Shown here: one piece after another, positions 6,301-27,236 of the stretch
Layout of the letters: the number at the start of each line of letters is the position of its first letter
Position numbering within the stretch: position 1 is the first letter of the stretch
Source: Actinomycetota bacterium
GTDB taxonomy: Bacteria > Actinomycetota > Acidimicrobiia > Spongiisociales > ZC4RG35
Direction of reading: 5' to 3'
NCBI GenBank assembly: GCA_052390035.1
Contig: JBQTHI010000047.1
Location: forward strand, 1-62,321
DNA: 62,321 nucleotides
The notes under the pieces: generated by a model
The model's input: the letters and a program-made list of their open reading frames with translations, nothing else
What the model was told of the DNA's origin: nothing
Database searches by the model: none
Program-made: the position numbers and the translations under genes

Positions 6301-6345
6301 ACGACCCTCTCCCGATAACCACCGACGGCCGATACCTTGGTCCCG

Positions 6346-8614: not shown

Positions 8615-9364
8615 TTAATGGGTTCCCCTCAGCCCGCCCCCGTCGAGATGCAGCACACCGCCGTGCATCAGGTCGGCCTCCGGTTCGAGAAGCAGCATCA
8701 CCGCCCAGACGATCTCATTGATGGTTGCGAGCCGGCGCAGCGAGGTCTCATTTACATACTCTGCATACACCTCGTCGAAGCCGACCCCTCGCTCGGCGGC
8801 GACGTTGGTCAGGAGGCGGCGCAACCGGGGTGTATCGGTTGGCCCCGGAGCGATGGTGTGCACGGTGACCCCCTTTGGTCCGTAAAGCATCGAAATCTGG
8901 CGCATCAGGTTGAGCACGGCGGCGTTAATCGCCCCCGGCCCCGCCTCGTGCGGCCTTGGTTCGATTCCGAGGGTCCCGGCGAACGTGACGAAGCGCGAAC
9001 TGCGGGTGAGGTGGTCGCGGACCGCGTGAAGGAGGCGGACCAGGCCGGCCACCTTGATGTTGGCCCCGAGCACCAGGGCATCGGGGTCGGTGGTCTCGAC
9101 CGAGCCCCGGACCGGAAGTCCGGCAGCGAAAACCGCCATCCGCACCGGACCATCGAGCATCCCTTTGATGGAGTTGATAGCGGAGTTGTCGGCGATGTCG
9201 GCCACACAGGGGTCGATCAGGGGTGAGCGCCTGGCCAGTTCGTTCAACTGGTGCTCGGTCCGCGCCACGGCCACGATCCGCAACCCTCGTCCGACCAACC
9301 TCTCGGCGATGGCGGCGCCGATTGCACCCGTGGCGCCGACCACCACGGCTGTTTCAAGTGCCAT
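8615..9364 (-). CDS. Atypical SDR family oxidoreductase (no YxxxK)
   Basis: VVGATGAIG Rossmann motif, VHTIAPGPTDTPRL and LHLDGG. Catalytic segment reads AGPGAINAA. Confidence 0.8.
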   Translation of the reverse strand: MALETAVVVGATGAIGAAIAERLVGRGLRIVAVARTEHQLNELARRSPLIDPCVADIADNSAINSIKGMLDGPVRMAVFAAGLPVRGSVETTDPDALVLGANIKVAGLVRLLHAVRDHLTRSSRFVTFAGTLGIEPRPHEAGPGAINAAVLNLMRQISMLYGPKGVTVHTIAPGPTDTPRLRRLLTNVAAERGVGFDEVYAEYVNETSLRRLATINEIVWAVMLLLEPEADLMHGGVLHLDGGGLRGTH

Positions 9365-9947
9365 CGAGGGCCACTTCAATCCGTTCGATGCTGCCGGCGA
9401 CATCCGTCACATCAAACCAAACGGTTCTCATTCCCACCGCCGAGGCTCCAACGAGGTTGTTGGGCTGATCGTCGACGAAAAGAACGTCCTCGGCGCGATG
9501 TCCGAGCGTTGCCAATGCGAACTCAAACGCCTTGGGATCTGGTTTGAGGAAGGGTTTGTGTGACAGGTCGATCAGCGGTTCGAATCGGCTGAGGATCGTC
9601 ATCCGCGCGACCCACTCCGGCGAATGGAACCTCGCCATGTCATTGGTCAACGAGGCGGGGCGATCGACCTTTGCCAGAAGACCAATCATCTCCGGCCGCA
9701 CCACCTCCTCCTCCGCGTGGTCCAGCACGACCCGGAACAGTTCCTTTACTGGATCATCACCTTCGAAAACCTCACGGGCTCGCTTCTCCCAATAATCGCG
9801 TTCAGTGATCTGAAGGCGCTGCATCTTCTGCCACAACGGGTCTGCGTCCGGGTCGAAAGGCCCGTGCCAGGGAGGGCTGCCGATCCAGCTCAGCATCTCG
9901 AACGGGGTTCTGATAACCACACCGCCGAGATCGAGGAGGAGCCTCAA
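9354..9947 (-). CDS. HAD-IA family hydrolase/phosphatase
   Basis: LLLDLGGV (motif I), SLTND (II), KPDP (III), LFVDDQPNNL (IV). Confidence 0.85.
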   Translation of the reverse strand: MRLLLDLGGVVIRTPFEMLSWIGSPPWHGPFDPDADPLWQKMQRLQITERDYWEKRAREVFEGDDPVKELFRVVLDHAEEEVVRPEMIGLLAKVDRPASLTNDMARFHSPEWVARMTILSRFEPLIDLSHKPFLKPDPKAFEFALATLGHRAEDVLFVDDQPNNLVGASAVGMRTVWFDVTDVAGSIERIEVALDGT

Positions 9948-10240
9948 TGTTCGGCTTCGTGCCCGACTAGTCGATGGACCCGGGTTATATCACCCGCCCA
10001 GCCACAACCGTGACACCATGTGTGATAGATGCGATGCTCGGCCTCCCAGTACTCCACCGATATCCCACCGCTCCCAACAACGGCGGAACCACAGTTGGGA
10101 CAGAACCTGGGAAGGTCGTCAAGGTGGCTGAGTCGGTCCGGATCCCACCAGTGGACCCCAGAGAGGCGCCGGCCCCTGACCGGCTCCTCGGCTTCGACAT
10201 GGTTGGGATAATCCGACTGAGTCGGGCGGTTCAGCTTCAT
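9944..10240 (-). CDS. Small hypothetical protein with two CxxC motifs (zinc-ribbon/rubredoxin-like)
   Basis: FCPNCG...WCHGCGW. Fills the gap between the Rieske oxygenase (11 bp away) and the HAD gene (4-bp overlap). Confidence 0.7.
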   Translation of the reverse strand: MKLNRPTQSDYPNHVEAEEPVRGRRLSGVHWWDPDRLSHLDDLPRFCPNCGSAVVGSGGISVEYWEAEHRIYHTWCHGCGWAGDITRVHRLVGHEAEH

Positions 10241-10251
10241 ACCGATCCCCG

Positions 10252-11556
10252 TTACTGGCCGGGGACTTCCCCGTAGGGATTGGACGGCTCGCCGTCCTGG
10301 CCGGGCAGTTGGCCGCGGGCGGCGGCGGCGTCGATATGAACTTTTCTGATCATGTCAAGGGCGGGTGAATACCGCGTCGAGCCCATGTCCGCCCAGGCGA
10401 GGGCAAAGTCGAGCCAGTTAACCCCGAACTTGTCTTTCTCACACGGGAGGGGGATCCGATCATGCTCGTACCGGACGAAATTGACCGTGGGTTCTTGACC
10501 CGCCTCGACCAGGGCCATCTGCTCGCGGAACATCCGCCGGAGCATGATCACGCCGCTGTCGGACTTTCCAATGTGCTCGGCGGTTCGGTCGGCGATGTCA
10601 CCCTGGGTGACCCAGGCCATAATGTCCTGGCCCTCGATGTAGTCGACGATGTGTTTGCCCCTCTCATCGAGCCAGGGTATTTCGTAGCTCTCGGGATAGA
10701 TCTGTTCGGGGAACACGCTCAACCCGGGCGGTTGGTGACTTGTGTAGAAGAGCACCCAGGCGTGGGTGTCGTCGATCGGCACCCGCATTTGCATCTGCTC
10801 GATACCGCCCCCGCCGACTCGCATCGAGAAGGGAAACACCAGGGGATGGCCCACCTTCCAGTCGTCCATTTCTTCGGTGTTTCCCTCCAGCACGCGGCGT
10901 TTGAGAATGCCCCACTCGATCGGGTCGAAACCGACCTTCTGGTGTCGCTTCTGGAAGGAGGGCGGAGCGAGGAAGCCCTTCTGCTCGCCGACGAACTGGA
11001 AATAGCGACCGTGCAGCCACTCGACGTGGTGTGGATCGACCGAGTTCTCCATGATCTGCAGCCAGTTGCAGGGAAGGGTCGCATAGCTGACGTCTTTGAA
11101 TCCGGGATCGACAAAGACGTCGAAACGGGGTAATTCGGGAGCGGGATCGGGGCCGATGTAGGCCCAGATCATTCCGCCCAGCGCCTGGGCCTTGCCGGCG
11201 AAGGCGCGGATTTTGGTCTTGAACACCGAGTTCTCCGGCTCGGCCGGTTGGTCGAGACAGGTGCCGGTGTTGTCGAAGAGCCATCCGTGATAGCCGCAGC
11301 GGATGCCTTGCTCTTCGACCACCCCGTACACCAGTGAGGCGCTGCGATGGGGGCACTTCTCTTGGACGATGCCGTAGCCACCCTGCGCCGTTTTCCATAG
11401 GGCGAGGTCTTCTGTGAGCAGCCGCACCTTCTTGATGGGCCACTCGTCCAGATCCTTCTGGAAGGCGACCGGGTACCAGTAACGGCGGAGCAACTCGCCC
11501 ATCGGGGTCCCGGGGCCCACCCGGGTCAATGACTCGTTCTGCTCCTTGCTTAGCAT
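10252..11556 (-). CDS. Rieske non-heme iron aromatic oxygenase alpha subunit (phthalate dioxygenase/LigXa-like family)
   Basis: LTRVGPGTPMGELLRRYWYP N-terminus, Rieske CPHR...CGYHGW, mononuclear Fe motif ENSVDPHHVEWLH, and QD. Start at ATG 11556 after AAGGAGAGG. Confidence 0.9.
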   Translation of the reverse strand: MLSKEQNESLTRVGPGTPMGELLRRYWYPVAFQKDLDEWPIKKVRLLTEDLALWKTAQGGYGIVQEKCPHRSASLVYGVVEEQGIRCGYHGWLFDNTGTCLDQPAEPENSVFKTKIRAFAGKAQALGGMIWAYIGPDPAPELPRFDVFVDPGFKDVSYATLPCNWLQIMENSVDPHHVEWLHGRYFQFVGEQKGFLAPPSFQKRHQKVGFDPIEWGILKRRVLEGNTEEMDDWKVGHPLVFPFSMRVGGGGIEQMQMRVPIDDTHAWVLFYTSHQPPGLSVFPEQIYPESYEIPWLDERGKHIVDYIEGQDIMAWVTQGDIADRTAEHIGKSDSGVIMLRRMFREQMALVEAGQEPTVNFVRYEHDRIPLPCEKDKFGVNWLDFALAWADMGSTRYSPALDMIRKVHIDAAAARGQLPGQDGEPSNPYGEVPGQ

Positions 11557-11573
11557 TGGCCTCTCCTTGATTT

Positions 11574-13385
11574 CTACTGGTCGAGGATGGTCACAGTTCC
11601 GGCGTTTCCATCGACGCGAATCATCGTCCCATTCTTGATTTCTCGCGTCCCGTAAGCGGTTCCGGTCACGGCGGGGACTCCGTATTCGCGACAGACTATG
11701 GCGGCATGGCTCATCACCCCGCCGATGTCGGTTACGCAAGCCTTGATCTTGGGGAACACCGGCGCCCACGAAGGGGCGGTTATCGTCGCTACCAGGATCT
11801 CGCCGTCTTGCACCGAGCCGATGTCGTCGGCGGAGAACACCAGGCGGGCGGGGCCTTCTGCCAGCCCCGGCGAGGCGGCCATGCCCTTGAGTTCGCCCGC
11901 CCCTTCCGGAGCGCTCAGCCAGGTGTTGACCGAGTCAGTGGTGATTCCCCACAACATTATCGTGAACGGTTCGGTCACAACCTCCGGCGCCGGTCCGAGC
12001 GCCTTGGGCGCCTTGAAGCCCCTGAGCGCCTCGTAAATTGCCCTTCGCTTCTTGATGATCTGCGGCCAGTAGTAGGGGCCGGCGGCGGGAGCATTCACCG
12101 CCCAGTTGCCGTAGAGGTCAGACAGCGCTTCGTCGACTTCGTCTCGACGGAGGAAGAAGATGTCCTCCTCGGATTCGAAGAACCCCTCCTTGGCGAATAC
12201 CCGTCCAAGATCCCGGCCCTTGCGCCAGAACACCGACATTCCCCAGTGTTCGATGTAGAAGTTGTGGTTCTCAACGTAGGGGAAAACGGTTCGCGCCAGC
12301 CCGAGCTTGCCCTGAAACGTCGCCCGATCCTCGTCGGTCTGCAACAGTTCGGCATATTCGGCCACGATGCGGTCGCGCTCGGCGATGATCTGATCGATCG
12401 GGCGGGCGATACTCTCCCCGGCTTCGATCTTGGTGACGTAGTCGCGGAGGAAGGCGTACGGGATCTCCGGGTTGTCGATCCACGTTTTGTCGAAGTAATA
12501 AAAGCCGGTGCCGGAGGAGAAATTGAACCAGGGCTCCTTCACCTCGTCCCACGCCACCTGCCATTTGCGACCGGGGTCGCTTCGGAGACCGGCCTGGACC
12601 TTTTCCGGATCGTCGGAGTCGAAGACCCGGGCGATGCCGAGATCAACGGCGAGGTGCGCCAGCTTCTTCAGCTCCTCGTTGGGCCGGAACAGGTCGACCT
12701 CGATCCCGGCCACCGTTTTGGCGATGGCCAGGTCGGGGATTCCCGGGAAGGCTTGCTTGCAGAAGCCGAAGAAGTCGAGATAGGCGGCGTATCCGAGGTT
12801 GAGGAATTCAAAATGCAGCTGCCAGATCTTTAGGGCCAGATCCTTGAACCGGTGATACTCCTCCTGGATCTGGTAGCCGGATCCGGTTCCCCATCCTTCG
12901 GTCACTACTTTGGCCTCTTCCATCTCTGGCAAGGGCTCGAACTTGATGCTGGCCATCTGCCCGATGGCCTCTTTTATCTTGCCCAACCAGTTCTGATAGA
13001 GGTTGTCCCAGTTTTGGAAGTAGAAGCCGGCCCGTTCCATGAAGAGCGGCACCCGGGCTTCGATCCTGGTGGGATCTTCCACTCCCACCGGGGAGAAATA
13101 GGGATAGCCGTAGAGGACCCGCACGTCGAGTCCATCGGCCGGGGGGATCATGTAGTGACGGCTGTTGTACTGGCTCAACGAGAAGAGGGCGTGCTCCAGA
13201 TGGGTGGCGTCCCACGGTGTCATCGCCCAGCCCCAGTGCATGCTGTCCTGGAACCAGAAGCGGTTGTCCTCGTACTCCCGCCTCCCCTCGCTAAAGGGAA
13301 GGTTGTAGGTGTAGAGCTGCTCCCAACCTTCAGCGCCTTTAGGCACCGCGATATCAAATGGGCTGGGGAATCGGTGGTCTGCCAT
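11574..13385 (-). CDS. Phenylphosphate synthase alpha-like subunit (PpsA/CreH-like), substrate-binding plus phospho-His domain
   Basis: N-terminus FPSPFDIAVPKGAEGWEQLY...FWFQDSMH resembles phenylphosphate synthase subunit A. C-terminal PEP-utiliser mobile domain GGVMSHAAIVCREYGVPAV. Confidence 0.8.
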   Translation of the reverse strand: MADHRFPSPFDIAVPKGAEGWEQLYTYNLPFSEGRREYEDNRFWFQDSMHWGWAMTPWDATHLEHALFSLSQYNSRHYMIPPADGLDVRVLYGYPYFSPVGVEDPTRIEARVPLFMERAGFYFQNWDNLYQNWLGKIKEAIGQMASIKFEPLPEMEEAKVVTEGWGTGSGYQIQEEYHRFKDLALKIWQLHFEFLNLGYAAYLDFFGFCKQAFPGIPDLAIAKTVAGIEVDLFRPNEELKKLAHLAVDLGIARVFDSDDPEKVQAGLRSDPGRKWQVAWDEVKEPWFNFSSGTGFYYFDKTWIDNPEIPYAFLRDYVTKIEAGESIARPIDQIIAERDRIVAEYAELLQTDEDRATFQGKLGLARTVFPYVENHNFYIEHWGMSVFWRKGRDLGRVFAKEGFFESEEDIFFLRRDEVDEALSDLYGNWAVNAPAAGPYYWPQIIKKRRAIYEALRGFKAPKALGPAPEVVTEPFTIMLWGITTDSVNTWLSAPEGAGELKGMAASPGLAEGPARLVFSADDIGSVQDGEILVATITAPSWAPVFPKIKACVTDIGGVMSHAAIVCREYGVPAVTGTAYGTREIKNGTMIRVDGNAGTVTILDQ

Positions 13386-13414
13386 GCATCCTCCTCTGAT
13401 TTGGCGGTCCGCCG

Positions 13415-14515
13415 CTACTTACTTGTTTCCGGATTGAGTTCTTCTGGCCCCTTGGTGTGGATCGGCGACATCAAGGTGGCGAGGATCGATGCCATCTGAT
13501 CGCCTGCCTGGCCGATCGGTTGGGGCTTTTTACGCGACCACACCGTTTCGGGGCGAGCCTGCAGCAAGAGCACGTTCTCGCCAGCCGGCAAGTACCGGTC
13601 AATCGCCCACTCCAAGTCCTGGGGCCGCCCGTAATGCCTCTCGGCTCGCCGGGCCATGGCAGCCACCGCCTTGACCTCGTCATCGCTAAGGCACTGAATC
13701 GTCTGGCGCTCCTCCTCGACATCGAACTTCTCGACGGTGTTGGCATCGTTGACCCGGTACTCGATCGCTTTGGGGGAGATGATTCGGCCAACAATCTGCT
13801 GGATGACCTTGTCGACCAGGAAGTTGTCAGGGGTGACCTCGCCCCCTACGACGGCCTCACCCAAACCCCAGGAGGCGTCGATGGCCACTTGTGACCGATC
13901 ACCGTTCATCGGGTTGAGAGTGAAGGCCACCCCGGCCGCCCTGGGGTCGACCATCTTTTGGATCGCTACCGCCATCGAGACGATCTCGTCTCCGAAGCCC
14001 ATCTCGCGCCGGTAGGCAATTGCCCGGTCGGTGAACAGCGACGACCAGCACTTCTTGACATGTTCGACGACGGACTCGCCGCCGGTCACCCACAGATAGG
14101 TGTCTTGCTGGCCGGCAAAGCTGGCGTCGGGCAGATCTTCGGCCGTAGCCGACGAGCGAACCGCAACCGGGATGTTGTCAATGCCGCACCGGGCGGACAA
14201 CGCTTGGTATGCCTCTTCGATGTCGGCGGCGATCTGCGAGTCGACCACGATGCCTTCGATCAGTTTCCGGACATCTTTGGAGATCTGGCGGAGTCCGACC
14301 GGATCCGAAAAGTCGGCGCTATCCAGGAGCTCGTTGACCCGCCCCCTGGTCTCGCGGTCGGCGCGGAGGGAATCGAAAGCGTCGGTCGTGACCGCGAACC
14401 CTGGTGGGACCGGCAGACCAGCCTTCATCATCGTGCCGAGGCTGGCGCATTTCCCCCCCACCCGCGACCGCTGGTCCTCTTCATAATGCTCAAACCAGAG
14501 GATGTATTCAGGCAT
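13415..14515 (-). CDS. Phenylphosphate synthase beta-like subunit (PpsB/CreI-like), stand-alone ATP-binding domain of the PEP synthase family
   Basis: VGGKCASLG, VAVRSSATAEDLPDASFAGQQDT, WGLGEAVV, DLEWAID and LLQARPET. No His or pyruvate-binding domain. Confidence 0.85.
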   Translation of the reverse strand: MPEYILWFEHYEEDQRSRVGGKCASLGTMMKAGLPVPPGFAVTTDAFDSLRADRETRGRVNELLDSADFSDPVGLRQISKDVRKLIEGIVVDSQIAADIEEAYQALSARCGIDNIPVAVRSSATAEDLPDASFAGQQDTYLWVTGGESVVEHVKKCWSSLFTDRAIAYRREMGFGDEIVSMAVAIQKMVDPRAAGVAFTLNPMNGDRSQVAIDASWGLGEAVVGGEVTPDNFLVDKVIQQIVGRIISPKAIEYRVNDANTVEKFDVEEERQTIQCLSDDEVKAVAAMARRAERHYGRPQDLEWAIDRYLPAGENVLLLQARPETVWSRKKPQPIGQAGDQMASILATLMSPIHTKGPEELNPETSK

Positions 14516-14548
14516 CGATGGAGCTCCAGGGGCCAGGTTGCGGCGTGC

Positions 14549-15625
14549 TCATCTCGGCTCCCACTCCTCGTCGAGCTGCCAAGTGGGCAAGGTGTCGATC
14601 TCGGGGACGTGGATCTCTTGGACTCGATTGCGATAGCTGACCAGGGCCTCGTGTCCTCCCTCCCGGAGCTTGACACGAACATGTTCCGTGTTGTACGGCT
14701 CGCCCGGGTCATAACCGAAGGCGGTGATGGCGAATGCCCGAATCGGCCCGGAGTGGGTGGTAATGAGAAGCCGCCCCCCGGGATGTTCCTCGGCGAGCCG
14801 GCGGATGCCCAGCCAGAACCGGCGCACAACCAACGCCGGCGGTTCGAAGTGCATCATCGGGATGGTGAGCCAATGCTGGATAGGGTCGGAACCGCCGCTC
14901 TGGGTTCGCCAGAAGCGATCGACCTCGACCAGCCACATGGGTCGGTCGCCGAGACTGGTCCGCTCGAACTCTTCGAGCTTGGCGTAGTACTGACGGAACG
15001 CAGAGGTGACATCGCGCAAGCCGTCGGGAGTGGCCACCGCGAAGTTGCGGAACTCCTCCATCGGGGCGGGCTCGAAAACCTTCACCTCCTTTTCGAACAT
15101 GGCCAGACCGTCGACCAACCCACGGTGGACATTGTCGGCGGTCTGGGCGGCCCGGTTGGTGGCGGCGTGGCGGATGACGACGGTTTCACCGTTGGAAACC
15201 CGTTTGGACACGGCATGTCCGTAGGTGTGGGCCTGCCAGGTTCCCAGAGGAGTCAGTCCCGCCTCGGTGGAGTATCCCTGGGTTTCCGCATGCCGGATCA
15301 GGTAGATGTCGGCGGCCAGTTTCATCCGCGCCTCCGGAGGCGCCGAGATCTCTTTGGTCCGGTTGTCCTCTGACAAGGACTGCTGCATTCCCAGCCCAAC
15401 CCGTTGGTAGAGGGGTGGCGCCTTGTCGGTGGTCGAAAGGTTCTCCCGCCGTTGACGGAACTGCCTCAGGTAGAGAGGGGTGCTGGCGTCGGCTTCGGGC
15501 TGCCCGCGGTCGGCAGGTCGATCCCTCTCCTGGCGTTGGCGATACTTGGCGAGATAGAGCGGCGCCTCATATCGATCGGTGCGAGGAAGCGCCACTTCGG
15601 GCGGAGGAGGGAGATCGTCGCTCAT
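14549..15625 (-). CDS. Histidine phosphatase family protein with repeated N-terminal extension
   Basis: IYLIRHAETQ (RHG-like motif), RAAQTA and ITTHSGPIR. Start ATG overlaps the upstream stop (ATGA). Confidence 0.75.
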   Translation of the reverse strand: MSDDLPPPPEVALPRTDRYEAPLYLAKYRQRQERDRPADRGQPEADASTPLYLRQFRQRRENLSTTDKAPPLYQRVGLGMQQSLSEDNRTKEISAPPEARMKLAADIYLIRHAETQGYSTEAGLTPLGTWQAHTYGHAVSKRVSNGETVVIRHAATNRAAQTADNVHRGLVDGLAMFEKEVKVFEPAPMEEFRNFAVATPDGLRDVTSAFRQYYAKLEEFERTSLGDRPMWLVEVDRFWRTQSGGSDPIQHWLTIPMMHFEPPALVVRRFWLGIRRLAEEHPGGRLLITTHSGPIRAFAITAFGYDPGEPYNTEHVRVKLREGGHEALVSYRNRVQEIHVPEIDTLPTWQLDEEWEPR

Positions 15626-16533
15626 GAGTGAACCGTCAGGAAGTCCTGGTCGACCACACCCTGGTAGTAGAAAATCGCCCGGCCCATCTCGGCCTCCGTC
15701 CAAGTGATCGGCTCTCGATCCGGGTCTGCCCAATACCCGCCCGTGTACACCTCGTTGCGGTTGCCGGCTGGGTCGAAGAAGTACAACCCCCAGCCACGGG
15801 TGGCGCCGTGCCGGGTGGGACCTGCGTCAATCCTCACTCCATTGAACGAGAGCAGGTCGGCCGCCCGACGCAGGTCGTTCCAGTCGTCCACCCAGAAGGC
15901 AACGTGGTGGAAGCCGCCGTTTGGTCCGGTTAGGAAAGCGAGGTCGTGAGCGGTGTGGGTGCGTTCCAGGAAGGCGACCAGCAGATGGCCGTCGTCGGAA
16001 ATGATCTGCTCGGTGAGGCGGAAATCGAGCACGCTCCGGAAGAAGGCGGTTGCCCCGTCGACGTCTTCGCACATCACGAAGATGTGGTCGATTCTCGGCG
16101 GTGCGATCCCCACCAATCCCTGCGGCTGGGGAGGGGGGTTGATCAGGGGCAGCATGTTGCCGACCTGCTCCATTCCCCAGATCAAATCGACGGTGTGGCC
16201 GCTCGGCGCCTGAAACCGCACCGTTTCGCCCCCTCCCGGGCCGAGCTCGCCGGCAGATAAGCGCTTGGTAGACACTCCCACTGCCTCGATCCGTTCCTGG
16301 AAAGAGTCGAGATCGGATTGGTTCTGAACCTTGAACCCCATCGCTTCCAGACCGTAGATAGGCGCGTATTGGAGAACGATGGAGTGGTGCTGATGTTCGT
16401 CCCAAGCCTTCAAGTAGACTCGCTCCGGCTCGCGGGCGACCTCGATCAGCCCGAGGACCTCCGAGTAATAGGCGGTGGCCAGTTCGAGATCGGGAACTTT
16501 GATCTCGGCGTGCGAGAGCCGGAGGACTCCCAT
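15622..16533 (-). CDS. xylE: Catechol 2,3-dioxygenase (type I extradiol), copy 2
   Basis: RIDH, AHDLA, FHHVAFW, GPTRHG and YFFDPAGNRNEV: all XylE metal and catalytic residues present. Confidence 0.9.
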   Translation of the reverse strand: MGVLRLSHAEIKVPDLELATAYYSEVLGLIEVAREPERVYLKAWDEHQHHSIVLQYAPIYGLEAMGFKVQNQSDLDSFQERIEAVGVSTKRLSAGELGPGGGETVRFQAPSGHTVDLIWGMEQVGNMLPLINPPPQPQGLVGIAPPRIDHIFVMCEDVDGATAFFRSVLDFRLTEQIISDDGHLLVAFLERTHTAHDLAFLTGPNGGFHHVAFWVDDWNDLRRAADLLSFNGVRIDAGPTRHGATRGWGLYFFDPAGNRNEVYTGGYWADPDREPITWTEAEMGRAIFYYQGVVDQDFLTVHS

Positions 16534-17441: not shown

Positions 17442-17478
17442 GTCGGCCGAACGTATCAGACCCTTCCCGTTTCGAGGG

Positions 17479-17502
17479 CCACCGTCCCGCCATGCGGAAC
17501 GG
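17479..17502. promoter_or_regulatory. Palindromic operator in the divergent promoter, probable IclR-family site
   Basis: CCGTCCCGC-CAT-GCGGAACGG imperfect palindrome. Near-identical copy at 22581-22602. Confidence 0.65.
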
Positions 17503-17583
17503 CCCCTGGTTGAGAGATTGCACCCCGTTCCGGATGGAGGGAAGGCGGTCCACAAGAAGGAACGGCCCCGCTAGTTTTCGGGG

Positions 17584-18288
17584 ATGGGCGCCTCGGAGCC
17601 GACCACGCCGACAGGGAACGAACCCGAGCAGATGCGCCGGCTGGTCAACGATTACATACGCACCGTCCACCTCGCTTACACGTCCCAGGCGAAGACCCAG
17701 CCACCCGCGGTGCAAGGCCGGATGTTGCTGCTCGGCGACGCTTTCACAGTGGTGGCGGCCGCGGTCCGCAACCTCCACGTGATAGCCACCCGCGAGCGCC
17801 TCGGCCCTCTCCACGGTCAGGAAGTGGAGTGGCAAGAGTCGACCGAGTCGCTGTCCTGGACGATTCGGTTCTTCGATCCGATCGTCCTGCCCGCACTGGG
17901 TTTCATCGACGAGTCGGTCGCACCCGCTCCCGACATGGTGAGGCGGGCGCTGGGGATCACCACCCATCTCTACCACCTGATCGTCCAGCCTGGCAGTCAG
18001 CTCACCCCCCACCACGCCGGCCATGCCGGCTCAGGGCTGGCCAATTCCCACGTGTCGGCTGCCCGTGACTTCGTGGCGATCCGGGCGGTGGCCAAGGGTC
18101 GAGAGAGCTTGGTCGACGAGATGGAGGGAGCGGCCGGCGCCGGCCTGATACGGGCGCAGGCCCTCCTGGCCCGGCAAATTGTCCCCCACGACCCGGAAGT
18201 CGGGCGGCTCGCCGAGAATCCAATGCCCGACGCCGATGTGGTGCGGAAGGCGCTGCTGTCCGCGGTCAGAGGGCCGGGAAGTGCCTGA
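17584..18288 (+). CDS. Hypothetical protein, first gene of the rightward catabolic operon (start could be 17632)
   Basis: Long ORF with typical codon usage, overlapping the IclR start. No motif recognised. Confidence 0.7.
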   Translation: MGASEPTTPTGNEPEQMRRLVNDYIRTVHLAYTSQAKTQPPAVQGRMLLLGDAFTVVAAAVRNLHVIATRERLGPLHGQEVEWQESTESLSWTIRFFDPIVLPALGFIDESVAPAPDMVRRALGITTHLYHLIVQPGSQLTPHHAGHAGSGLANSHVSAARDFVAIRAVAKGRESLVDEMEGAAGAGLIRAQALLARQIVPHDPEVGRLAENPMPDADVVRKALLSAVRGPGSA

Positions 18289-19063
18289 GTCCACCGCACT
18301 CTCGTCGGTGCGGAATGCCGTCCGGGTACTGAAAGCGTTTACCGGAGCCCGGCGGTATTTCGGCGTGTCGGAGCTCGCCAGACATCTCGGGCTTTCGAGC
18401 TCAACGGTTCACCGGCTGCTGACAACCCTCGAGTCCGAGCATCTGATCGAGCAGGACGAGGCTACCGGCAAATATGGGCTTGGGCTGGCGGTGTTCGACA
18501 TCGCCGCCGCCGCCGCCCCCGGCTACGACCTGTCCAACGCCCTCTTGGCTCCGATGACGATCCTCCGCAACCGCACAGGTGAGACTGTCCACGTGGCGGT
18601 GCTCGACGGACGACAGGTGGTGTACATCGAGCGCCTCGACAGCCCCCACACCCTTCGATACTTTCTGGAACAAATCGGCCGGCGAAATTGGGCTCATTGC
18701 ACATCGACCGGCAAGGTGTTGCTCTCCTATCTGCCGGAGACGGTGCTCGATCGCCTGCTCGACGGCTGGGAGCTACCGGCCCTGACCCCGCACACCATCA
18801 CCGACCGCGAACTTCTCAAGAAAGAACTGGCCGAGGCGCGAGACCTCGGCTACGCCCAGAACAATGGCGAGTCAGAGCCTGAGACGATGAGCATCGGAGC
18901 CCCGATCCGCGACTCGGCCGGTCGGGTGATCGCCGCCATGAGTGTCGCCGGTCCGGCGGGCCGCATGTTCCCCGAGGCTCGGGCGCTTCGGTTCGCAGTC
19001 CTGGAAGCAGCCGGGGCGGCGTCGCGCCGACTCGGTTATCAGCCACGAAGGACACTCAGATGA
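18281..19063 (+). CDS. IclR family transcriptional regulator
   Basis: LSSVRNAVRVL, wHTH GVSELARHLGLSSSTVHRLL, TGETVH, HCTSTGKVLL and SIGAPI. Confidence 0.93.
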   Translation: MPESTALSSVRNAVRVLKAFTGARRYFGVSELARHLGLSSSTVHRLLTTLESEHLIEQDEATGKYGLGLAVFDIAAAAAPGYDLSNALLAPMTILRNRTGETVHVAVLDGRQVVYIERLDSPHTLRYFLEQIGRRNWAHCTSTGKVLLSYLPETVLDRLLDGWELPALTPHTITDRELLKKELAEARDLGYAQNNGESEPETMSIGAPIRDSAGRVIAAMSVAGPAGRMFPEARALRFAVLEAAGAASRRLGYQPRRTLR

Positions 19064-19836
19064 AGACTTCGACCCCGTGGGCAGAGATCCTCTACGAGGC
19101 CTGGGCCCAGCGCGCTCCGATCGATCCGCTGACCGAGTCCGAGCCAGGCCTCGACGTGGCGGAGGCGTATCGGATCCAGCAGGAATACGTCTCGCTGCTC
19201 GCCGGCAAGCAAGGAGCGGTGATCGGCTACAAGCTGGGGCTCACCTCCCGGCCGATGCAGGAGATGATGGAGGTCGACCAGCCCGACTTCGGGCCGGTGC
19301 TATCCAACATGGTCTTCGCCGATGGGGTGACAGTCGACCTCGACAGATACATCCAGCCCCGAGTAGAAGCGGAGATCGCCCTCTATCTATCGGCGCCGTT
19401 GGAGGGGCCGGGAGTGACCACCTCCGCCGCCGCCGCCGCCATCACCGGGGCGGTGGGGGCAATCGAGATGGTCGACAGTCGCATCAAAGACTGGAAGATC
19501 CGCCTCGTCGACACCATCGCCGACCTGGCCAGCTCGGCCGCCACAGTTCTTTCGTCGCGGATTGTGGCGATTGACGGATGGGACCCACGACTGTGCGGGA
19601 TGGCCATTTCGAAGAACGGCGTGACAGTCGACACCGGAGCAGGCGCTGCCGCGCTCGGCAACCCGGTGGCCGCCGTGGCCTGGCTGGCCAACACCCTGGC
19701 TCCTTTCGAAGTATCCCTGCAACCCGGCTGGTTCGTGATGACCGGTGCGCTCCATCGGGCCTTTCCAGTGGCGAAGGGAGACGAAGTGACGGCCGAGTTC
19801 GACCGACTCGGCCCGGTCACGATGAGCTTTGTCTGA
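19060..19836 (+). CDS. mhpD: 2-keto-4-pentenoate (2-hydroxypenta-2,4-dienoate) hydratase
   Basis: GYKLGLTS, QPDFG, PRVEAEIA, DSRIKDWKI and DTIAD; meta-pathway context. Confidence 0.85.
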   Translation: MKTSTPWAEILYEAWAQRAPIDPLTESEPGLDVAEAYRIQQEYVSLLAGKQGAVIGYKLGLTSRPMQEMMEVDQPDFGPVLSNMVFADGVTVDLDRYIQPRVEAEIALYLSAPLEGPGVTTSAAAAAITGAVGAIEMVDSRIKDWKIRLVDTIADLASSAATVLSSRIVAIDGWDPRLCGMAISKNGVTVDTGAGAAALGNPVAAVAWLANTLAPFEVSLQPGWFVMTGALHRAFPVAKGDEVTAEFDRLGPVTMSFV

Positions 19837-19863
19837 TGACAGTCCGTTGATCAAGGAGACCAA

Positions 19864-20712
19864 TTGACCAAGGTAGGTTGCGCCATTGTCGGGTCGGGCA
19901 ACATCGGTACCGACCTCATGTTCAAACTCACCCGGTCCCCGATCCTCGATTTGAGGGCGTTGGTCGGGGTCGATCCCGATTCGGAGGGGCTGGCCATGGC
20001 CCGCTCGCTCGGGATCGATGCCACCCACGAGGGGGTCGACTGGCTGATGGACCGAGCCGGCGAGTACCGCATCGTGTTCGAGGCCACCTCGGCATGGGTG
20101 CATCGGACCAACGCCCCCCGCTACCAAGAGGCGGGGCTGCGGGCGGTGGACCTCACTCCCGCCAAACTCGGTCCGCTGGTTGTGCCCCCGGTCAATCTCG
20201 AGCGTCACCTCGACGCCCCCAACGTGAACCTCATCACCTGCGGCGGCCAGGCGACGACGCCCATCGTCTATGCGGTGTCCCGAGTATGCGAAGTGCCATA
20301 CGCCGAAATCGTCTCGACCGTGGCCTCCACTTCGGCCGGTCCGGGAACCCGCCAGAACATCGACGAGTTCACCAAGACGACCTCCGCCGCCCTGGTCGAG
20401 GTCGGGGGAGCTCGCCATGGAAAGGCGATCATGGTCCTCAACCCCGCCGAGCCCCCCATCCTCATGCGTAACACGGTCTTCTGTGCTCTCGGCGACGGTC
20501 ATGACCGGGAGGAGGTGGCTCAATCCATCCTCGATATGGTCGAAGAGGTGGCGTTCTACGTGCCCGGTTACCGGATGAAAAACGCGCCGGTCTTCGACGA
20601 GGACCTGTTCTCGACTCCGGGAGGTGAGGTCAAAGCCCGAGTGGTGGCGTTGCTCGAGGTGGAAGGAGCGGGTGACTACTTCCCGCCTTACGCCGGCAAC
20701 TCGACATCATGA
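19864..20712 (+). CDS. dmpF: Acylating acetaldehyde dehydrogenase. A 1-nt deletion near 20700 truncates it; the intact gene would end at 20774.
   Basis: [19 protein letters not shown] and [13 protein letters not shown]. After YAGN the conserved DIMTASA continues in another frame. Confidence 0.9.
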
Positions 20713-20770
20713 CCGCCTCGGCGATGCGGGTCGGTGAGGCCATCGCCCAAAGCCTCGATGGAGGAGCGCG

Positions 20771-21802
20771 ATGAACCCTCGCTTTCGGCTGACCGACTCG
20801 ACCCTCCGCGACGGCTCCCACGCCGTCGCCCACCAGTTCAATGAGCAACAGGTCCGCCGAGTAGTGCGGGCGCTCGATGCGGCGGGGGTGCCGGTGATCG
20901 AGGTGTCCCATGGAGATGGGGTGGGGGGTTCGTCCTTCAACTACGGGTTCAGCCATACCAACGAGATGGATCTGATCAAAGCGGCGGTGGCCGAGACGGA
21001 GCAGGCCAAGATCGCGGTTCTGATGGTGCCGGGGATCGGGACCAAACAGGACCTGCGGGCGGCTGCTCAGGCCGGGGCCAGGGTGGCGCGGATCGCCACC
21101 CACTGCACCGAGGCCGACATCTCCCAACAGCACCTGGCCCTCGCCCACGAACTGGGGATGGAGGCGGTCGGTTTTCTGATGATGGCTTCGATGATCGACC
21201 CGAAACGGCTCGCCGAGGAAGCGAAAAAGATGGAGTCCTACGGAGCCGACGCGGTCTACGTGGTCGACTCCGCTGGTGCGATGACAATCGACGACGCCCG
21301 CCGCCGGGTGTCGGCGGTGAAGGCCGCGGTCGGCTGCCAGGTGGGGATCCACGCCCACAACAACCTCTCCCTGGCCGTGGCCAACAGCCTGGCCGCATTG
21401 GAGGAGGGGGCCGACCAGGTCGACGGGTGTACCACCGGCCTCGGGGCCGGTGCAGGCAACTGCCCCACCGAGGCGTTGGTGGCGGCCTGCGAGAAGTCGG
21501 GCATCCCCACCGGGATCGACACCCTGCGAATCATGGACGCGGCCGAGGAGGCGGTGCGACCGCTGCGGCCCGAACAGGGGGTGCTCGATCGGGATGGGCT
21601 GCTGCTCGGTTACGCCGGCGTCTACGGGTCGTTCCTGCTTCACGCCAAACGCGCCGCCGATCGTTACGGAGTCGACTCCAAAGAGATCCTGCTCGAGCTG
21701 GGACGCCGAAAGGTGGTCGGGGGCCAAGAGGACATGATCATCGACGTGGCCGTCGAACTGCAGAGGAAGGCGGCCGCCGCCCACGACGCGTCTCTCCCGT
21801 GA
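20771..21802 (+). CDS. dmpG: 4-hydroxy-2-oxovalerate aldolase
   Basis: [28 protein letters not shown] and [10 protein letters not shown]. Confidence 0.95.
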
Positions 21803-21812
21803 CTCAACTCTG

Positions 21813-22577
21813 ATGACATCCGAAGCCGCCCTCAACGACTTGGCCGATCGCCTGGTCTGGGCGGTGCGAAGCCGAACCGCTCTCGACCCCGGCGACTCGG
21901 AACTGTCGCCCGACGATGCCTACGAGGTCCAGGACCGGGTGATTGCCGCCCTCGGGGGCGGAGTGGAGGCGGCCAAGCTCGGGCTGACTTCGCGTGCGAA
22001 GCAGGAGCAGATGAAGGTCTCCGAGCCGAGCTACGGGTGGCTGCTTGCGGGTTCGCGGATCGAGCCCGCCCGACCGCTCATCGCTGCCGAACTGATTCAG
22101 CCCCGGGCCGAGCCGGAGATCGCATTCCGGATCGGCCGGAACCTCCACGGTCCGGAGATGACCGCGAATGAGGTGCTCGACGCCACCGAGGCGGTGATGC
22201 CGGCGATCGACATCCTCGACTCCCGCTACGCAGGGTACCGGTTCACGCTGCCCGATGTCATCGCCGACAACGCCTCGGCCGCCCGTTATGCCGTGGGCCC
22301 AGGGCGGCCGGTCGACGAGGTCGATCTGCGCCTGGTGGGCTGTGTCTTCACCAAGAACGGCCAGCTCCAGGCGACCGCCGCCGGAGCGGCGGTCCTCGAT
22401 CATCCGGCGGCGGCGGTGGCCTGGTTCGTGAGAAAACTCTGGGAGCGGAGGCGGCGGCTGGCGCCGGGGGCATTGGTGCTCTCCGGAGCCCTGACCGCGG
22501 CGGTGGCCATCGCTCCCGGCGACGTGGTCACCGTTGAAATCGACCGGGTCGGATCGGTGGAGGTCGAAGTGCGATGA
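21813..22577 (+). CDS. dmpH: 4-oxalocrotonate decarboxylase
   Basis: KLGLTSRAKQEQM, DSRYAGYRFTLPDVIADNAS and AAGAAVLDHPA. Confidence 0.85.
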   Translation: MTSEAALNDLADRLVWAVRSRTALDPGDSELSPDDAYEVQDRVIAALGGGVEAAKLGLTSRAKQEQMKVSEPSYGWLLAGSRIEPARPLIAAELIQPRAEPEIAFRIGRNLHGPEMTANEVLDATEAVMPAIDILDSRYAGYRFTLPDVIADNASAARYAVGPGRPVDEVDLRLVGCVFTKNGQLQATAAGAAVLDHPAAAVAWFVRKLWERRRRLAPGALVLSGALTAAVAIAPGDVVTVEIDRVGSVEVEVR

Positions 22578-22580
22578 TCC

Positions 22581-22602
22581 CCACCGTCCCGCATAGCGGA
22601 AC
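22581..22602. promoter_or_regulatory. Second copy of the palindromic operator, upstream of the tautomerase
   Basis: CCACCGTCCCGC-ATA-GCGGAAC, identical to 17479-17500 except the 3-nt spacer. Confidence 0.65.
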
Positions 22603-22656
22603 CTCACTCCCCTATTTGGGAAGGGAAGGGTACCTTCGAGGCGAGAAAGGATCTCG

Positions 22657-22881
22657 ATGCCACTGGTCTACATCAACCTGATGGAGGGAAGACCTCCCGC
22701 CAAAATAGAGAAAATGATCACCGCCGTGTCCGAGGCGATCGCCTCTTCTTTGGAAGCTCCCATCGACACAGTGAGAGTGATGGTCTACGAGATGGCGCCA
22801 CACCAATACGGGGTCGGGGGTAAGCCCTTCACCGAGGTCATAGCGGAAAGAGCAGCCAAGGGCTCTGAGGGCGATCCATGA
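22657..22881 (+). CDS. dmpI: 4-oxalocrotonate tautomerase
   Basis: N-terminal Pro-1 (MPLVYINLMEGR), VRV and YGVGG; 74 aa. Confidence 0.9.
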   Translation: MPLVYINLMEGRPPAKIEKMITAVSEAIASSLEAPIDTVRVMVYEMAPHQYGVGGKPFTEVIAERAAKGSEGDP

Positions 22882-24326
22882 AAACCATTCTCCACTTCAT
22901 CGGTGGCGAGTTCGTCGAATCGGCTGACGGTGGCGCCTTCCCTTCGATCAGCCCGATTGATAACACTCAGATCGCCGAAGTGGCGGAGGGCGGTGGACCC
23001 GATGTCGAGCGGGCGGTGGCCTCCGCCCGGGATGCGTTCGAAGCTTGGGCAGTGACAAACCCGACCGCCCGCAAGCGGATATTGCAGAAGGTCGCCGACG
23101 GCATCGAGGCACGTGCCGACGAGTTGTCGGAATGGGAGACCCGCGACATGGGGAAACCCATTTCCGACGCTTTGGGCAAAGACGTCCCGCGGGCTGCCTA
23201 CAACTTCCGTTTCTTTGCGGACTACGCCGAGCACGCCGGCACCCGCGCCTACGACAAGGGCTGGGACAACACGTTCGGCTACGAGCTGCGCGAGCCGATC
23301 GGGGTGGTGGCGGCGATCTCCCCGTGGAACTTCCCGCTGATGCTGCTCACCTGGAAGGTGGCGCCCGCGCTTGCTTTTGGTTGCACGGTCGTGGCCAAAC
23401 CGGCCGAGCAATCCCCGATCACGGCGTCGATCCTCGCCGAAATCTGCGCCGAGGCCGGGGTGCCCGATGGGGTGTTCAACGTGGTCCACGGCTTCGGGCC
23501 AGAGGCCGCAGGGGAGGCATTGACCAGACACCCCGATGTCGCCGCCATCACCTTTACCGGTGAGTCCAATACCGGTAAGGCGATCATGTCGGCGGCGGCC
23601 GCCGGGCTGAAGAAGCTGTCTTTCGAGCTGGGAGGAAAGTCGGCTTCGATTGTTTGCGCCGACGCCGATCTCGACGCCGCCGTGACCGGTTCCCTCGAAG
23701 GGGTGTTTCTGAACCAGGGTGAGATCTGCCTCGCCGGCTCCCGGATTTTCGTGCAACGCCCGGTTTACGAGGAGTTCTGCGCTCGGTTCGTGGAGGGCGC
23801 CGAGTCGTGGAAGGTCGGCGATCCCCTCGACCCCACCACCCGCATGGGCCCGCTTGTCTCCTCTGAACACATTGACAAGGTGCTCTCCTACATCGACCTT
23901 GCCCAGCGGGAGGGGGCCAAGATGCTCACCGGAGGCCATCGGCTTACAGATGGAAAGCTGGCCCGTGGCAACTTTCTTGCCCCGACGGTCTTCGCTGACG
24001 TCGACAACTCGATGCGGGCGGCGCGTGAGGAGATCTTTGGCCCGGTGGCCGTCGTCTTGCCCTTCGACGAAACCGACGAGGCAGTTGCCGCTGCCAACGA
24101 CTCCCCTTACGGACTGGCCGGAATGGTATGGACCAAGAACCTTGACACGGCACATCGCTTGGCCCGTGGGGTGAAAGCCGGCAATATCTGGGTCAACTGC
24201 TTCTTCGTTCGTGACCTGCGCCTACCCTTCGGCGGCTACAAAGACTCGGGGGTGGGACGAGAGGGCGGGGAATACTCCTACGAGTTCTTCACCGAGTCGA
24301 AGGCCGTAGTCATCAAGCTCGACTGA
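22878..24326 (+). CDS. dmpC: 2-hydroxymuconic semialdehyde dehydrogenase
   Basis: ALDH motifs ISPWNFPLMLLTWKVAPAL, FTGES, FELGGK, NQGEICL and VRDLRLPFGG. Confidence 0.9.
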   Translation: MKTILHFIGGEFVESADGGAFPSISPIDNTQIAEVAEGGGPDVERAVASARDAFEAWAVTNPTARKRILQKVADGIEARADELSEWETRDMGKPISDALGKDVPRAAYNFRFFADYAEHAGTRAYDKGWDNTFGYELREPIGVVAAISPWNFPLMLLTWKVAPALAFGCTVVAKPAEQSPITASILAEICAEAGVPDGVFNVVHGFGPEAAGEALTRHPDVAAITFTGESNTGKAIMSAAAAGLKKLSFELGGKSASIVCADADLDAAVTGSLEGVFLNQGEICLAGSRIFVQRPVYEEFCARFVEGAESWKVGDPLDPTTRMGPLVSSEHIDKVLSYIDLAQREGAKMLTGGHRLTDGKLARGNFLAPTVFADVDNSMRAAREEIFGPVAVVLPFDETDEAVAAANDSPYGLAGMVWTKNLDTAHRLARGVKAGNIWVNCFFVRDLRLPFGGYKDSGVGREGGEYSYEFFTESKAVVIKLD

Positions 24327-24327
24327 G

Positions 24328-24690
24328 ATGCGTATCGGGGCGGGGCCGGTCGAAGCAATTCCAACCAAACACTGCGTCGCCGTTGGCGACGGCAAGGCCG
24401 TGGTAGTGAGAATCCGGGGAGAGGTGGTCGCCTTCCCCAACCGCTGCCTCCACCAGAACTCACCATTGGCGGACGGTGTTGTGCTCGACGGGATTCTCAT
24501 CTGCCCGATGCACTTCTGGAGATACCGGCTTCCCGAGGGAACCCATATCGGCAGCGGGAGCAGGCTGGCGGCCTATCCGGTCGAGATCGTCGGCGGCGAG
24601 GTGTTCATCGAGGTGCCCGATCCGGAGCCCAAGCTTTCCATGCGCGACCTCCTCCTCAAGCACGCCCGGGAGTGGGCGCCCAATCGATAG
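24328..24690 (+). CDS. Rieske [2Fe-2S] ferredoxin
   Basis: NRCLHQ...LICPMHFW Rieske motif; 120 aa. Confidence 0.85.
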   Translation: MRIGAGPVEAIPTKHCVAVGDGKAVVVRIRGEVVAFPNRCLHQNSPLADGVVLDGILICPMHFWRYRLPEGTHIGSGSRLAAYPVEIVGGEVFIEVPDPEPKLSMRDLLLKHAREWAPNR

Positions 24691-27223: not shown

Positions 27224-27236
27224 AACGCACCACTCC

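Follow-up and report, generated by a model that had tools for sequence, protein, structure and literature searches.

A conserved actinobacterial gene cluster joins a two-component phenolic kinase and a Rieske oxygenase to catechol meta-cleavage, a candidate phosphorylation-first route for phenols

The stretch of DNA analysed here (the window, 62,321 nucleotides) is the whole contig JBQTHI010000047.1 of a 2.6-Mb, 96.9% complete genome of an actinobacterium (assembly GCA_052390035.1), and between positions 8615 and 24690 it carries two divergent operons in which a two-component kinase of the phenol-phosphorylating kind and a Rieske oxygenase (RO) lie among genes for the meta-cleavage of catechol. 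A scan of the open reading frames (ORFs) and domains of the window, covering 61 ORFs, found all nine genes of the leftward operon in the order given by the original prediction (xylE-xylE-histidine phosphatase-PpsB-PpsA-Rieske-CxxC-HAD-SDR), tightly packed, with intergenic gaps of -11 to +33 bp. This operon, on the minus strand, opens with two catechol 2,3-dioxygenases, i.e. xylE1 (XylE/LapB type; 16533-17441; 371 bits with TIGR03211, cut-off 320; metal and active-site motifs intact) and xylE2 (15622-16533; 362 bits with the same model, motifs intact, 52% identity to xylE1), followed by a branch 1 histidine phosphatase (14549-15625; PF00300) whose N-terminal extension carries two helical motifs that resemble each other. 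Then come the ATP-grasp subunit of the phenolic dikinase, similar to CreI, PpsB and HpeI (13415-14515; 366 aa, PF01326 or PPDK_N), its substrate-binding and phospho-histidine swivel subunit, similar to CreH, PpsA and HpeH (11574-13385; 603 aa, PRK08296 models above cut-off, His560), and the RO alpha subunit (10252-11556; 434 aa), which has Rieske and LigXa_C domains and belongs to the subfamily of phthalate and isophthalate dioxygenase and LigXa. The operon closes with a CxxC...CxxC mini-protein, zinc-ribbon or rubredoxin-like, whose four cysteines are invariant in 55 sequences (9944-10240), a HAD-IA hydrolase (9354-9947; TIGR01509 above cut-off) and an atypical short-chain dehydrogenase/reductase (SDR; 8615 to about 9364; adh_short), which is accessory only.

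The divergent IclR/meta-cleavage operon on the plus strand, which had also been predicted, indeed ends in a Rieske-type ferredoxin (24328-24690; PF00355, ligand motifs intact), and includes two genes that had not been listed before, an orphan gene (17584-18288) and a tautomerase gene (22657-22881). The orphan gene opens the operon and encodes a conserved, cluster-specific protein of 234 aa with a His-rich motif, which had no match in Pfam, NCBIfam, Atlas and PDB profile searches; its family, with 171 representatives, is confined to this cluster and has no distant family. It is followed by an IclR-family regulator (18281-19063; PF01614, PF09339), a 2-oxopent-4-enoate hydratase-like protein (DmpE; 19060-19836; best model TIGR03220, below cut-off), an acylating acetaldehyde dehydrogenase (DmpF; 19864-20770; TIGR03215 above cut-off), a 4-hydroxy-2-oxovalerate aldolase (DmpG; 20771-21802; TIGR03217 above cut-off), a 4-oxalocrotonate decarboxylase-like protein (DmpH; 21813-22577; best model TIGR03218, below cut-off), the 4-oxalocrotonate tautomerase (PF01361 above cut-off) and a 2-hydroxymuconic semialdehyde dehydrogenase-like protein (22878-24326; TIGR02299 and TIGR03216 best, both below cut-off). 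The DmpF gene is frameshifted: compared with two close relatives, a one-base deletion near 20700 shortens its frame, being either a sequencing error or a real lesion.

The divergent promoter contains a 17-bp palindrome, GTYCCGC-N3-GCGGRAC (17484-17500), with a weaker second copy at about 17527, and a second exact copy (22586-22602) lies 5' of the tautomerase-dehydrogenase-ferredoxin genes; these two are the only exact matches in the genome. With at most two mismatches, the palindrome occurs in the divergent spacers of 34 of 39 relatives, compared with 0.4% of shuffles and none of 195 coding controls, the pattern having been derived from the same spacers and fitted after inspection. Over the whole window its 2 matches at this tolerance do not exceed those in shuffles (mean 4.0), and the support thus lies in position and conservation. 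In clusters that are split, it stands 5' of the kinase gene in two of five cases (L073 and L089; L and G numbers denote loci and genomes of the comparison set), and not in L068, L069 and L071. It is probably the IclR operator, through which the upper and lower genes would form one regulon.

To place the cluster among its relatives, the RO alignment was run against GTDB, where at least 593 stretches encode an RO relative; the best 80 of these (61-92% identity) were analysed, in part by an all-against-all comparison whose simple gene caller is error-prone, and they are kin, some being the same genome under two ids. The proposed co-localisation of kinase homologs with a Rieske alpha subunit and xylE was borne out: 79 of the 80 loci have the large kinase subunit next to the RO, and xylE2 is found in 56, xylE1 in 53, which is nearly all of those long enough, with the tandem pair conserved. 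The gene order is likewise kept in other genomes, kinase and RO being adjacent in all 76 loci with more than 300 bp upstream. The small kinase subunit is present in 64 loci (64/64 of those reaching far enough), the histidine phosphatase in 61 (61/63 of those reaching far enough), the CxxC gene in 78 (76/76 with room downstream of the RO) and the orphan gene in 48 (46/49 with room). The HAD gene, whose position varies among relatives, was found in 34 loci and the SDR gene in five; when neighbourhoods were extended for 17 clusters, 13 of the 17 had one or two HADs.

The RO is present in 10 of 60 relatives. An even sample of the phylum (401 genomes, the window's genome included) gave an RO match in 16 genomes, again counting that of the window, and in 14 of these a kinase of at least 63% identity lies directly upstream of the RO; no kinase of this RO-linked clade (at least 63%) was found anywhere else in the sample. 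Of the 401 genomes, 15 matched the phosphatase profile, a set identical to that of the RO clade; the orphan profile matched 14, every one of them inside the RO set. One genome, G330, has an RO sister at 52% identity without a kinase. Another, G071, was considered as a kinase-less exception and rejected as such, since one of its contigs ends within the RO and another begins with the CxxC gene and then the kinase pair, a join that we infer. Chance or local clustering is rejected by the conservation across genome samples, and, as judged from gene content and order, the module is real, strictly conserved and apparently uncharacterised.

In the GTDB scan the closest relatives with the cluster are labelled Acidimicrobiia, and among the best 80 of the at least 593 stretches the carriers are Acidimicrobiia, Nanopelagicales, Nitriliruptoraceae and other, mostly uncultured actinobacteria from soil, freshwater and marine habitats; the cluster also occurs in sponge-associated Spongiisociaceae. 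Nocardioides agariphilus is the sole isolate name among 240 listed matches, a match that covers the RO alone and not its gene context. A divergent Acidimicrobiia version (L122, in G207; RO 56%) has neither the CxxC nor the orphan gene in the stretch covered, and carries its lower pathway downstream of the RO.

An independent metagenome scan, seeded with the sister RO of G330, gave 79 loci that fall into two kinds. All 16 ROs with 61-70% identity to the RO of the window have the kinase, versus none of the 63 at 43-55%, which also have neither phosphatase nor XylE (9 of these 63 loci have at most 300 bp upstream, and the sister loci are shorter on average). Gfo/Idh/MocA dehydrogenases, read here as dihydrodiol dehydrogenases, lie beside 25 of the 63 sister ROs, versus one of the 16 kinase-linked metagenome ROs and none of the 80 GTDB loci. 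Sister clusters borne on plasmids carry phthalate-type decarboxylases, reductases and anion transporters; transporter queries taken from sister clusters matched in six of the 63 sister loci and in none of the kinase-linked ones, a difference of little weight. In a midpoint-rooted FastTree of 64 of the 168 RO rows, with G071 and edge-truncated loci labelled kinase-linked, the kinase-linked ROs form one side of a branch with 100% support. The RO clade appears to have descended from aromatic-acid dioxygenases, and would have lost the dehydrogenase and gained the kinase and phosphatase. The sister group itself (L102-L104, L123, L132-L210; 43-55%) is large and apparently uncharacterised. Its neighbour genes encode Gfo/Idh/MocA dehydrogenases, class II aldolases, proteins like dihydroxyphthalate decarboxylase and transporters of the tricarboxylate or chromate type, and in some cases the CxxC protein.

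The RO has invariant Rieske ligands (C68/H70/C87/H90) and iron ligands (H177/H182/D311), and no beta subunit gene accompanies it at the locus. Its predicted model (pLDDT 85.8) is closest to phthalate and isophthalate dioxygenases (Z 30-32, at about 28-30% identity), compared with Z 24 for the guaiacol demethylase 7qwt and about 24 for dicamba demethylase. All 168 RO rows, of which 101 are kinase-linked and 67 come from sisters, share the basic and polar residues K219, R221, H237, Q256 and R258, and H176, M245, Q254, M255, H274, E308 and H328 mark the kinase-linked clade. In a profile alignment K219 corresponds to Arg231 and Q256 to Asn266 of phthalate dioxygenase, two residues that lie on its anion-binding side (PMC8649396). 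By the Pfam name and the label given by JGI, the subfamily spans dioxygenases as well as the O-demethylase LigXa, and the automatic JGI name of the clade is LigXa-type O-demethylase.

As for the partners of the RO, the Rieske ferredoxin is found in all 11 of the upstream stretches L110-L120 and is probably its electron donor. A flavoreductase gene, whose product we take to resemble FprA, follows in 11 of the 80 loci and is absent from the genome of the window, which has an HcaD/AndAa-like reductase on another contig. The original prediction had listed both the CxxC protein and the SDR in the operon; the SDR lies outside the conserved module, and the CxxC protein accompanies the RO subfamily and not the kinase. 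The CxxC protein, for which family searches matched no named family, was also considered as a partner of the kinase and rejected, since its gene follows kinase-less sister ROs as well; it is a probable accessory factor of the RO. The SDR was considered as a dihydrodiol dehydrogenase and rejected, with its gene in so few loci and Tyr-x-x-x-Lys missing at the expected place.

The kinase has the two-component layout, i.e. a separate ATP-grasp protein and a swivel protein of about 600 aa encoded next to each other. The swivel motif around His560 reads T-x-x-GG-x-M-S-H, with Met at the position of the regulatory Thr (as in 74 of the 75 rows of the swivel-subunit alignment), and such a replacement in T/S-x-x-GG-x-x-x-H is described for phenolic kinases (PMC12167813). 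With kinase types assigned by annotated neighbour genes, the ATP-grasp subunit is 53% identical to the Cre type, 49% to the Pps type and 42-43% to the Acv/Hpe type, and the swivel subunit 53% to the Cre type and 45-48% to the Pps and Acv/Hpe types; clusters of the Cre gene composition on a Rhodococcus oxybenzonivorans plasmid (L105) and in G205 (L245) stand in here for the Cre type. Phylogenies against Pps and Cre kinases, built from rows other than the Corynebacterium glutamicum proteins themselves, placed the RO-linked kinases in a clade of their own in both trees (support 96 in a quick IQ-TREE of 44 rows and 99 in a FastTree of 36 rows); a sister relation to P450/HD-linked kinases appears in the FastTree only and is absent from the quick IQ-TREE. 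In L030 and G071 the same cluster contains a kinase of another clade (47-48%) with the subunit order reversed. In the RO tree L030 falls within the ordinary Acidimicrobiia ROs, so that one kinase has probably been exchanged for another on at least one occasion without the pairing being lost, and this replacement argues that the RO may need the kinase function rather than being just its neighbour by descent.

Several other kinase arrangements were seen. Three related genomes have a second, lone large kinase subunit (46-47%; L241:3086-7794, L242:4700-6568, L079:14195-16063, L243:11-1837), which in two of them lies beside the cluster, with a HAD and without an adjacent small subunit, and in L241 is accompanied by two LigB-type genes. 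This extra subunit may work with the ATP-grasp subunit of the cluster and broaden the range of substrates. A separate, haloarchaeal combination of kinase and Rieske enzyme is found on a Natribaculum luteum plasmid (L107:5033-13709), where a distant kinase pair (40%) shares a cluster with genes for an alpha/beta Rieske dioxygenase, aldehyde dehydrogenase, metallophosphoesterase, HAD and cupin. The Cre-like cluster of G205 has two tandem HD genes (L245:10328-11523), G280 has kinase subunits beside molybdenum-hydroxylase-like genes (L246), and on a Thermomicrobium roseum plasmid (L106) a kinase pair lies beside biotin carboxylase and xanthine-dehydrogenase-family genes.

The histidine phosphatase forms a family of its own, with only weak matches in PDB (to PGAM5), and has the complete branch 1 catalytic set, R111, H112, R158 and H291 being invariant in 33 sequences. 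In the split operons L068, L071 and L073 it stays with xylE-xylE, and the kinase, RO and CxxC genes remain together. Because the phosphatase stays with the xylE pair when the operon splits, this arrangement suggests that it hands catechol to the dioxygenases, i.e. that it is a catechol-monophosphate phosphatase, and the HAD is a probable second phosphatase. The solved chains nearest to xylE1 are the catechol 2,3-dioxygenases 3hpv, 5znh and 1mpy. No 2-hydroxymuconic semialdehyde hydrolase was found in the window; with an uncharacterised hydrolase as query, a hydrolase-like match occurs in one of the 80 loci and the best match in the genome is at 30%. The lower pathway consists of the dehydrogenase branch only, which points to catechol or 4-substituted catechols and not to 3-alkylcatechols. 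In L110-L115 and L126 a third gene of the hydratase/decarboxylase family and a second HAD follow the ferredoxin, both of which are absent from the window.

Conventional ways of feeding catechol into this pathway were searched for. As had been predicted, no carboxylase, P450 or multicomponent hydroxylase is among the 61 ORFs of the window, and in the genome the P450, UbiD and HpaB families had no match in profile searches that detected their positive controls. A multicomponent hydroxylase had no match in the genome either, though its positive control was missed, and tblastn with toluene-monooxygenase subunits also gave no match. The sole other annotated RO alpha subunit of the genome sits in an amine-oxidation context. 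As far as this incomplete genome goes, the module is the only evident feeder of the meta pathway.

Following these results, it seems probable, if by no means assured, that kinase, RO, phosphatase and XylE form an ATP-primed, aerobic route in which a small neutral phenol is converted via its aryl phosphate and a catechol monophosphate to catechol, which then enters meta-cleavage. The dikinase would trap the phenol as aryl phosphate while ATP is converted to AMP via His560, a chemistry known for the family, with the phenol as presumed substrate. The phosphate would then act as an anionic handle that replaces the carboxylate usual for the RO subfamily, and the RO, with the Rieske ferredoxin and a reductase from elsewhere in the genome supplying electrons, would oxygenate the ortho position, the product being an aromatic catechol monophosphate, for which a dehydrogenase is not needed. 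Within this scheme, ring hydroxylation of phenyl or 4-cresyl phosphate is given slightly better than an even chance, and O-demethylation of guaiacyl or 4-methylguaiacyl phosphate slightly less than an even one. Subsequently, the histidine phosphatase would free catechol beside the two XylE enzymes (the HAD probably recycling aryl phosphates that the RO cannot use), and, going by family annotation, ring cleavage and the dehydrogenase-tautomerase-decarboxylase branch would lead to pyruvate and acetyl- or propionyl-CoA. The scheme explains why a kinase is present, why cationic residues have been retained, why a dehydrogenase is lacking and why the phosphatase sits where it does. The original prediction of phosphorylation, oxygenation, dephosphorylation and meta-cleavage is in this respect backed by gene order, co-occurrence, an operator-like site, the kinase swap and the lack of a dihydrodiol dehydrogenase, the activity itself being what we infer.

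A number of observations weigh against this route. We know of no RO that hydroxylates the ring of an aryl phosphate, and O-demethylation has better chemical precedent among ROs than ring hydroxylation; against O-demethylation it counts, weakly, that genes for handling formaldehyde are not conserved around the cluster (L026 alone has a formyl transferase). In the closest enzymes of known structure, oxygen is added far from the anion that anchors the substrate and not ortho to it (PMC8649396). Opposite their two essential clamp residues, Arg207 and Arg244, the profile alignment, which is of low confidence in this stretch, places A197 and V235 of the RO. Flavin-monooxygenase families have weak, partial matches in the genome, and the two XylEs, the often two HADs and the third hydratase/decarboxylase-family gene of many relatives hint at chemistry beyond what the scheme requires. 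Finally, the loci are related to each other, with several counted twice, and the route is one read from gene content and comparison. That the enzyme is the first Rieske oxygenase with a phosphate ester as its natural substrate, attacking the ring itself, is a serious possibility that falls a little short of being probable.

An ipso/ortho (1,2) dioxygenation, which the original prediction had offered beside ortho hydroxylation, would introduce O2 at the phosphate-bearing carbon and its neighbour, so that phosphate is lost spontaneously and catechol is formed, the phosphatases merely proofreading dead-end aryl phosphates. Sulfonates and halides are known to leave in this way once a ring has been dioxygenated, a dehydrogenase would be unnecessary (in line with the absence of Gfo/Idh/MocA from all 80 loci), and both the closest structures and the sister clade are dioxygenases. 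Phthalate dioxygenase does attack C1 and C2 of terephthalate, but in that case the anchoring carboxylate is the distal one (PMC8649396). Moreover, a dedicated histidine phosphatase that is exclusive to the RO clade and strictly conserved with the xylE pair fits an on-pathway role better, and ortho hydroxylation followed by the phosphatase is the favoured option, with ipso/ortho dioxygenation being unlikely.

Equally unlikely is a distal attack, which like O-demethylation goes beyond the original prediction, and in which the monophosphate of hydroquinone, resorcinol or a 4-substituted phenol (halo, methoxy or amino) would be dioxygenated at C3-C4 and, after loss of water or the substituent, give 3,4-dihydroxyphenyl phosphate, a protected form of hydroxyquinol whose ring one XylE would open either before the phosphate is removed or afterwards. 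It would match the meta/para regiochemistry of phthalate and isophthalate dioxygenases without a need for a dehydrogenase, and would give a role to both XylEs, to the phosphatases, of which there are two or three, and to the additional gene of the hydratase/decarboxylase family; the occurrence of the cluster in Spongiisociaceae would suit it as well, halophenols being common in sponges. However, the conserved lower pathway is the classical set for catechol and 4-methylcatechol, both XylEs score as ordinary catechol 2,3-dioxygenases, and the copy in the window has neither the extra hydratase/decarboxylase gene nor the second HAD.

It is still less likely that the kinase is a scavenging trap only, holding the phenol as its phosphate until the phosphatase releases it, with the RO acting on the free phenol. 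Such scavenging has been proposed for HpeHI on the basis of a sub-micromolar Km (PMC12167813), and a Rieske O-demethylase for guaiacol has been solved (7qwt). The RO of the window, however, belongs structurally to the anion-binding subfamily rather than with 7qwt and keeps the cationic residues of its sisters, and the enzyme that follows the kinase in the Cre and Hpe pathways depends on the phosphate (bioRxiv 10.1101/2022.04.28.489975; PMC9618137). A futile cycle would also leave the pairing of kinase and RO unexplained while the phosphatase moves with xylE. A Cre pathway in which a Rieske enzyme replaces the P450 and the methyl group of 4-cresyl phosphate is oxidised towards 4-hydroxybenzoate has in its favour the kinase, closest to the Cre type (53%) and sister to P450/HD-linked kinases in one tree, and the Rieske enzyme TsaM, which oxidises the methyl group of toluenesulfonate, but is hardly credible, as the CreG/CreC-type alcohol/aldehyde dehydrogenase pair, the HD phosphatase and the 4-hydroxybenzoate route are not conserved in the 80 loci, the downstream enzymes accept catechols and not protocatechuate, and the sister relation is missing from the quick first tree.

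The preferred route, with phosphorylation followed by ortho oxygenation and dephosphorylation, nevertheless resembles the Cre system most in its workings. The Cre set of C. glutamicum consists of the kinase CreHI, the P450 system CreJEF, CreG, CreC and the phosphohydrolase CreD (PMC7764795), and CreHI forms the phosphorylated intermediate that is required for 4-cresol oxidation (bioRxiv 10.1101/2022.04.28.489975). Both systems are aerobic, have an IclR regulator, and use a two-component dikinase, then an oxygenase on the phosphorylated phenol (as presumed for the window) and then a phosphatase. In contrast to Cre, the window has a Rieske enzyme instead of a P450 (absent from all 80 loci searched), a histidine phosphatase and a HAD instead of an HD-domain phosphatase, no CreG/CreC and a kinase of a separate clade, and its product would go to catechol meta-cleavage, whereas that of Cre goes to 4-hydroxybenzoate. 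The HD-domain protein of L105 had no match in the genome or the 80 loci, and CreG-like matches occur in two of the 80. The original prediction was mistaken in taking CreD for a HAD, at least as far as two clusters with the cre gene set are concerned, where the gene at the position of CreD encodes an HD-domain protein.

The Pps/Ppc system of Thauera, Aromatoleum and Azoarcus (L109) has a homologous kinase pair (45% and 49%) with the same phospho-histidine motif, but it is anaerobic and continues with a UbiD-type carboxylase and a third protein with CBS domains; UbiD was not found in the genome of the window or the 80 loci. The Hpe/Acv pathway for acetovanillone (HpeHI or AcvAB, a biotin carboxylase and a HAD phosphatase, with a MarK variant) is also aerobic, with phosphorylation first and a HAD phosphatase, but has a carboxylase in place of the oxygenase and kinases of another clade (42-48% identical); biotin-dependent carboxylase genes were found neither in the window nor in the 80 loci. 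HpeCBA accepts only the phosphorylated substrate (PMC9618137), and AcvAB can phosphorylate guaiacol (PMC12624787). With the phthalate 4,5-dioxygenase and isophthalate dioxygenase of Comamonas testosteroni KF1 (7fjl/7v25 and 9ina/9ioy) the RO shares the alpha-only Rieske fold, the metal ligands and an equivalent of Arg231; the cluster differs from that of phthalate 4,5-dioxygenase in having no PDR-type reductase, dihydrodiol dehydrogenase or decarboxylase (0/80 loci) and in that the anion of its substrate would be made inside the cell. The Agc/Aph systems of Rhodococcus likewise let phenols and guaiacols converge on catechol and extradiol cleavage (PMC13101465), and the dmp/xyl pathway has the same lower enzymes as the window, but there the free phenol is the substrate of a P450, flavin or diiron hydroxylase, and no ATP is spent on it.

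No description of a kinase-Rieske-XylE cluster was found in the full-text literature, with subscription journals, figures and datasets as places that could hold a mention, and the available portions of PMC12167813, PMC9618137, PMC8649396, PMC12624787, PMC13101465, PMC13599478, PMC7764795 and bioRxiv 10.1101/2022.04.28.489975 do not describe one. The cluster is apparently an undescribed variant of phenol catabolism that begins with phosphorylation, the oxygenase partner being the new element, and it works like Cre without being a member of it. In the databases the RO is automatically labelled as dehydrodivanillate O-demethylase and the kinase as PEP-utilising, and the route is therefore invisible in annotations.

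Why aerobes spend two ATP equivalents on the phosphorylation of phenols is a stated open question (PMC12167813, PMC9618137), to which a candidate answer would be that the phosphate gives a neutral phenol an anionic handle for a carboxylate-binding Rieske scaffold and traps it at low concentration. If so, kinase, RO and phosphatase would together constitute an ATP-driven type of phenol hydroxylase unrelated to the flavin, diiron and P450 enzymes, with which oligotrophic actinobacteria could harvest trace phenols. Given how widely it occurs, the cluster may be an overlooked sink for phenols that stem from lignin and humic matter in soils, lakes, sediments and sponges, and lignin valorisation would gain from it a new guaiacol demethylase or phenol hydroxylase. 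In the boldest form of this idea, phosphorylated catechols or hydroxyquinols would themselves be ring-cleaved, a task in which the two XylEs, the additional phosphatases and the orphan protein would take part.

Regarding the surroundings of the cluster, hisA (7910-8611, minus strand) lies 3 bp behind the SDR gene, and the remaining his operon lies across the aromatic cluster (25050-29752), without a hisA between hisH and hisF. None of the 80 related loci has a hisA match, and the separation of hisA from its operon suggests that an insertion or inversion may have taken place at the site of the cluster. A gene for an Hvo_1808-like surface protein (6337-7897) is seemingly split into two overlapping frames of 332 and 190 aa. 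Further away, a gene for AceK (isocitrate dehydrogenase kinase/phosphatase; 54455-56281), which is unusual for an actinobacterium, adjoins that of a large adenylate cyclase-AAA protein (56185-59181).

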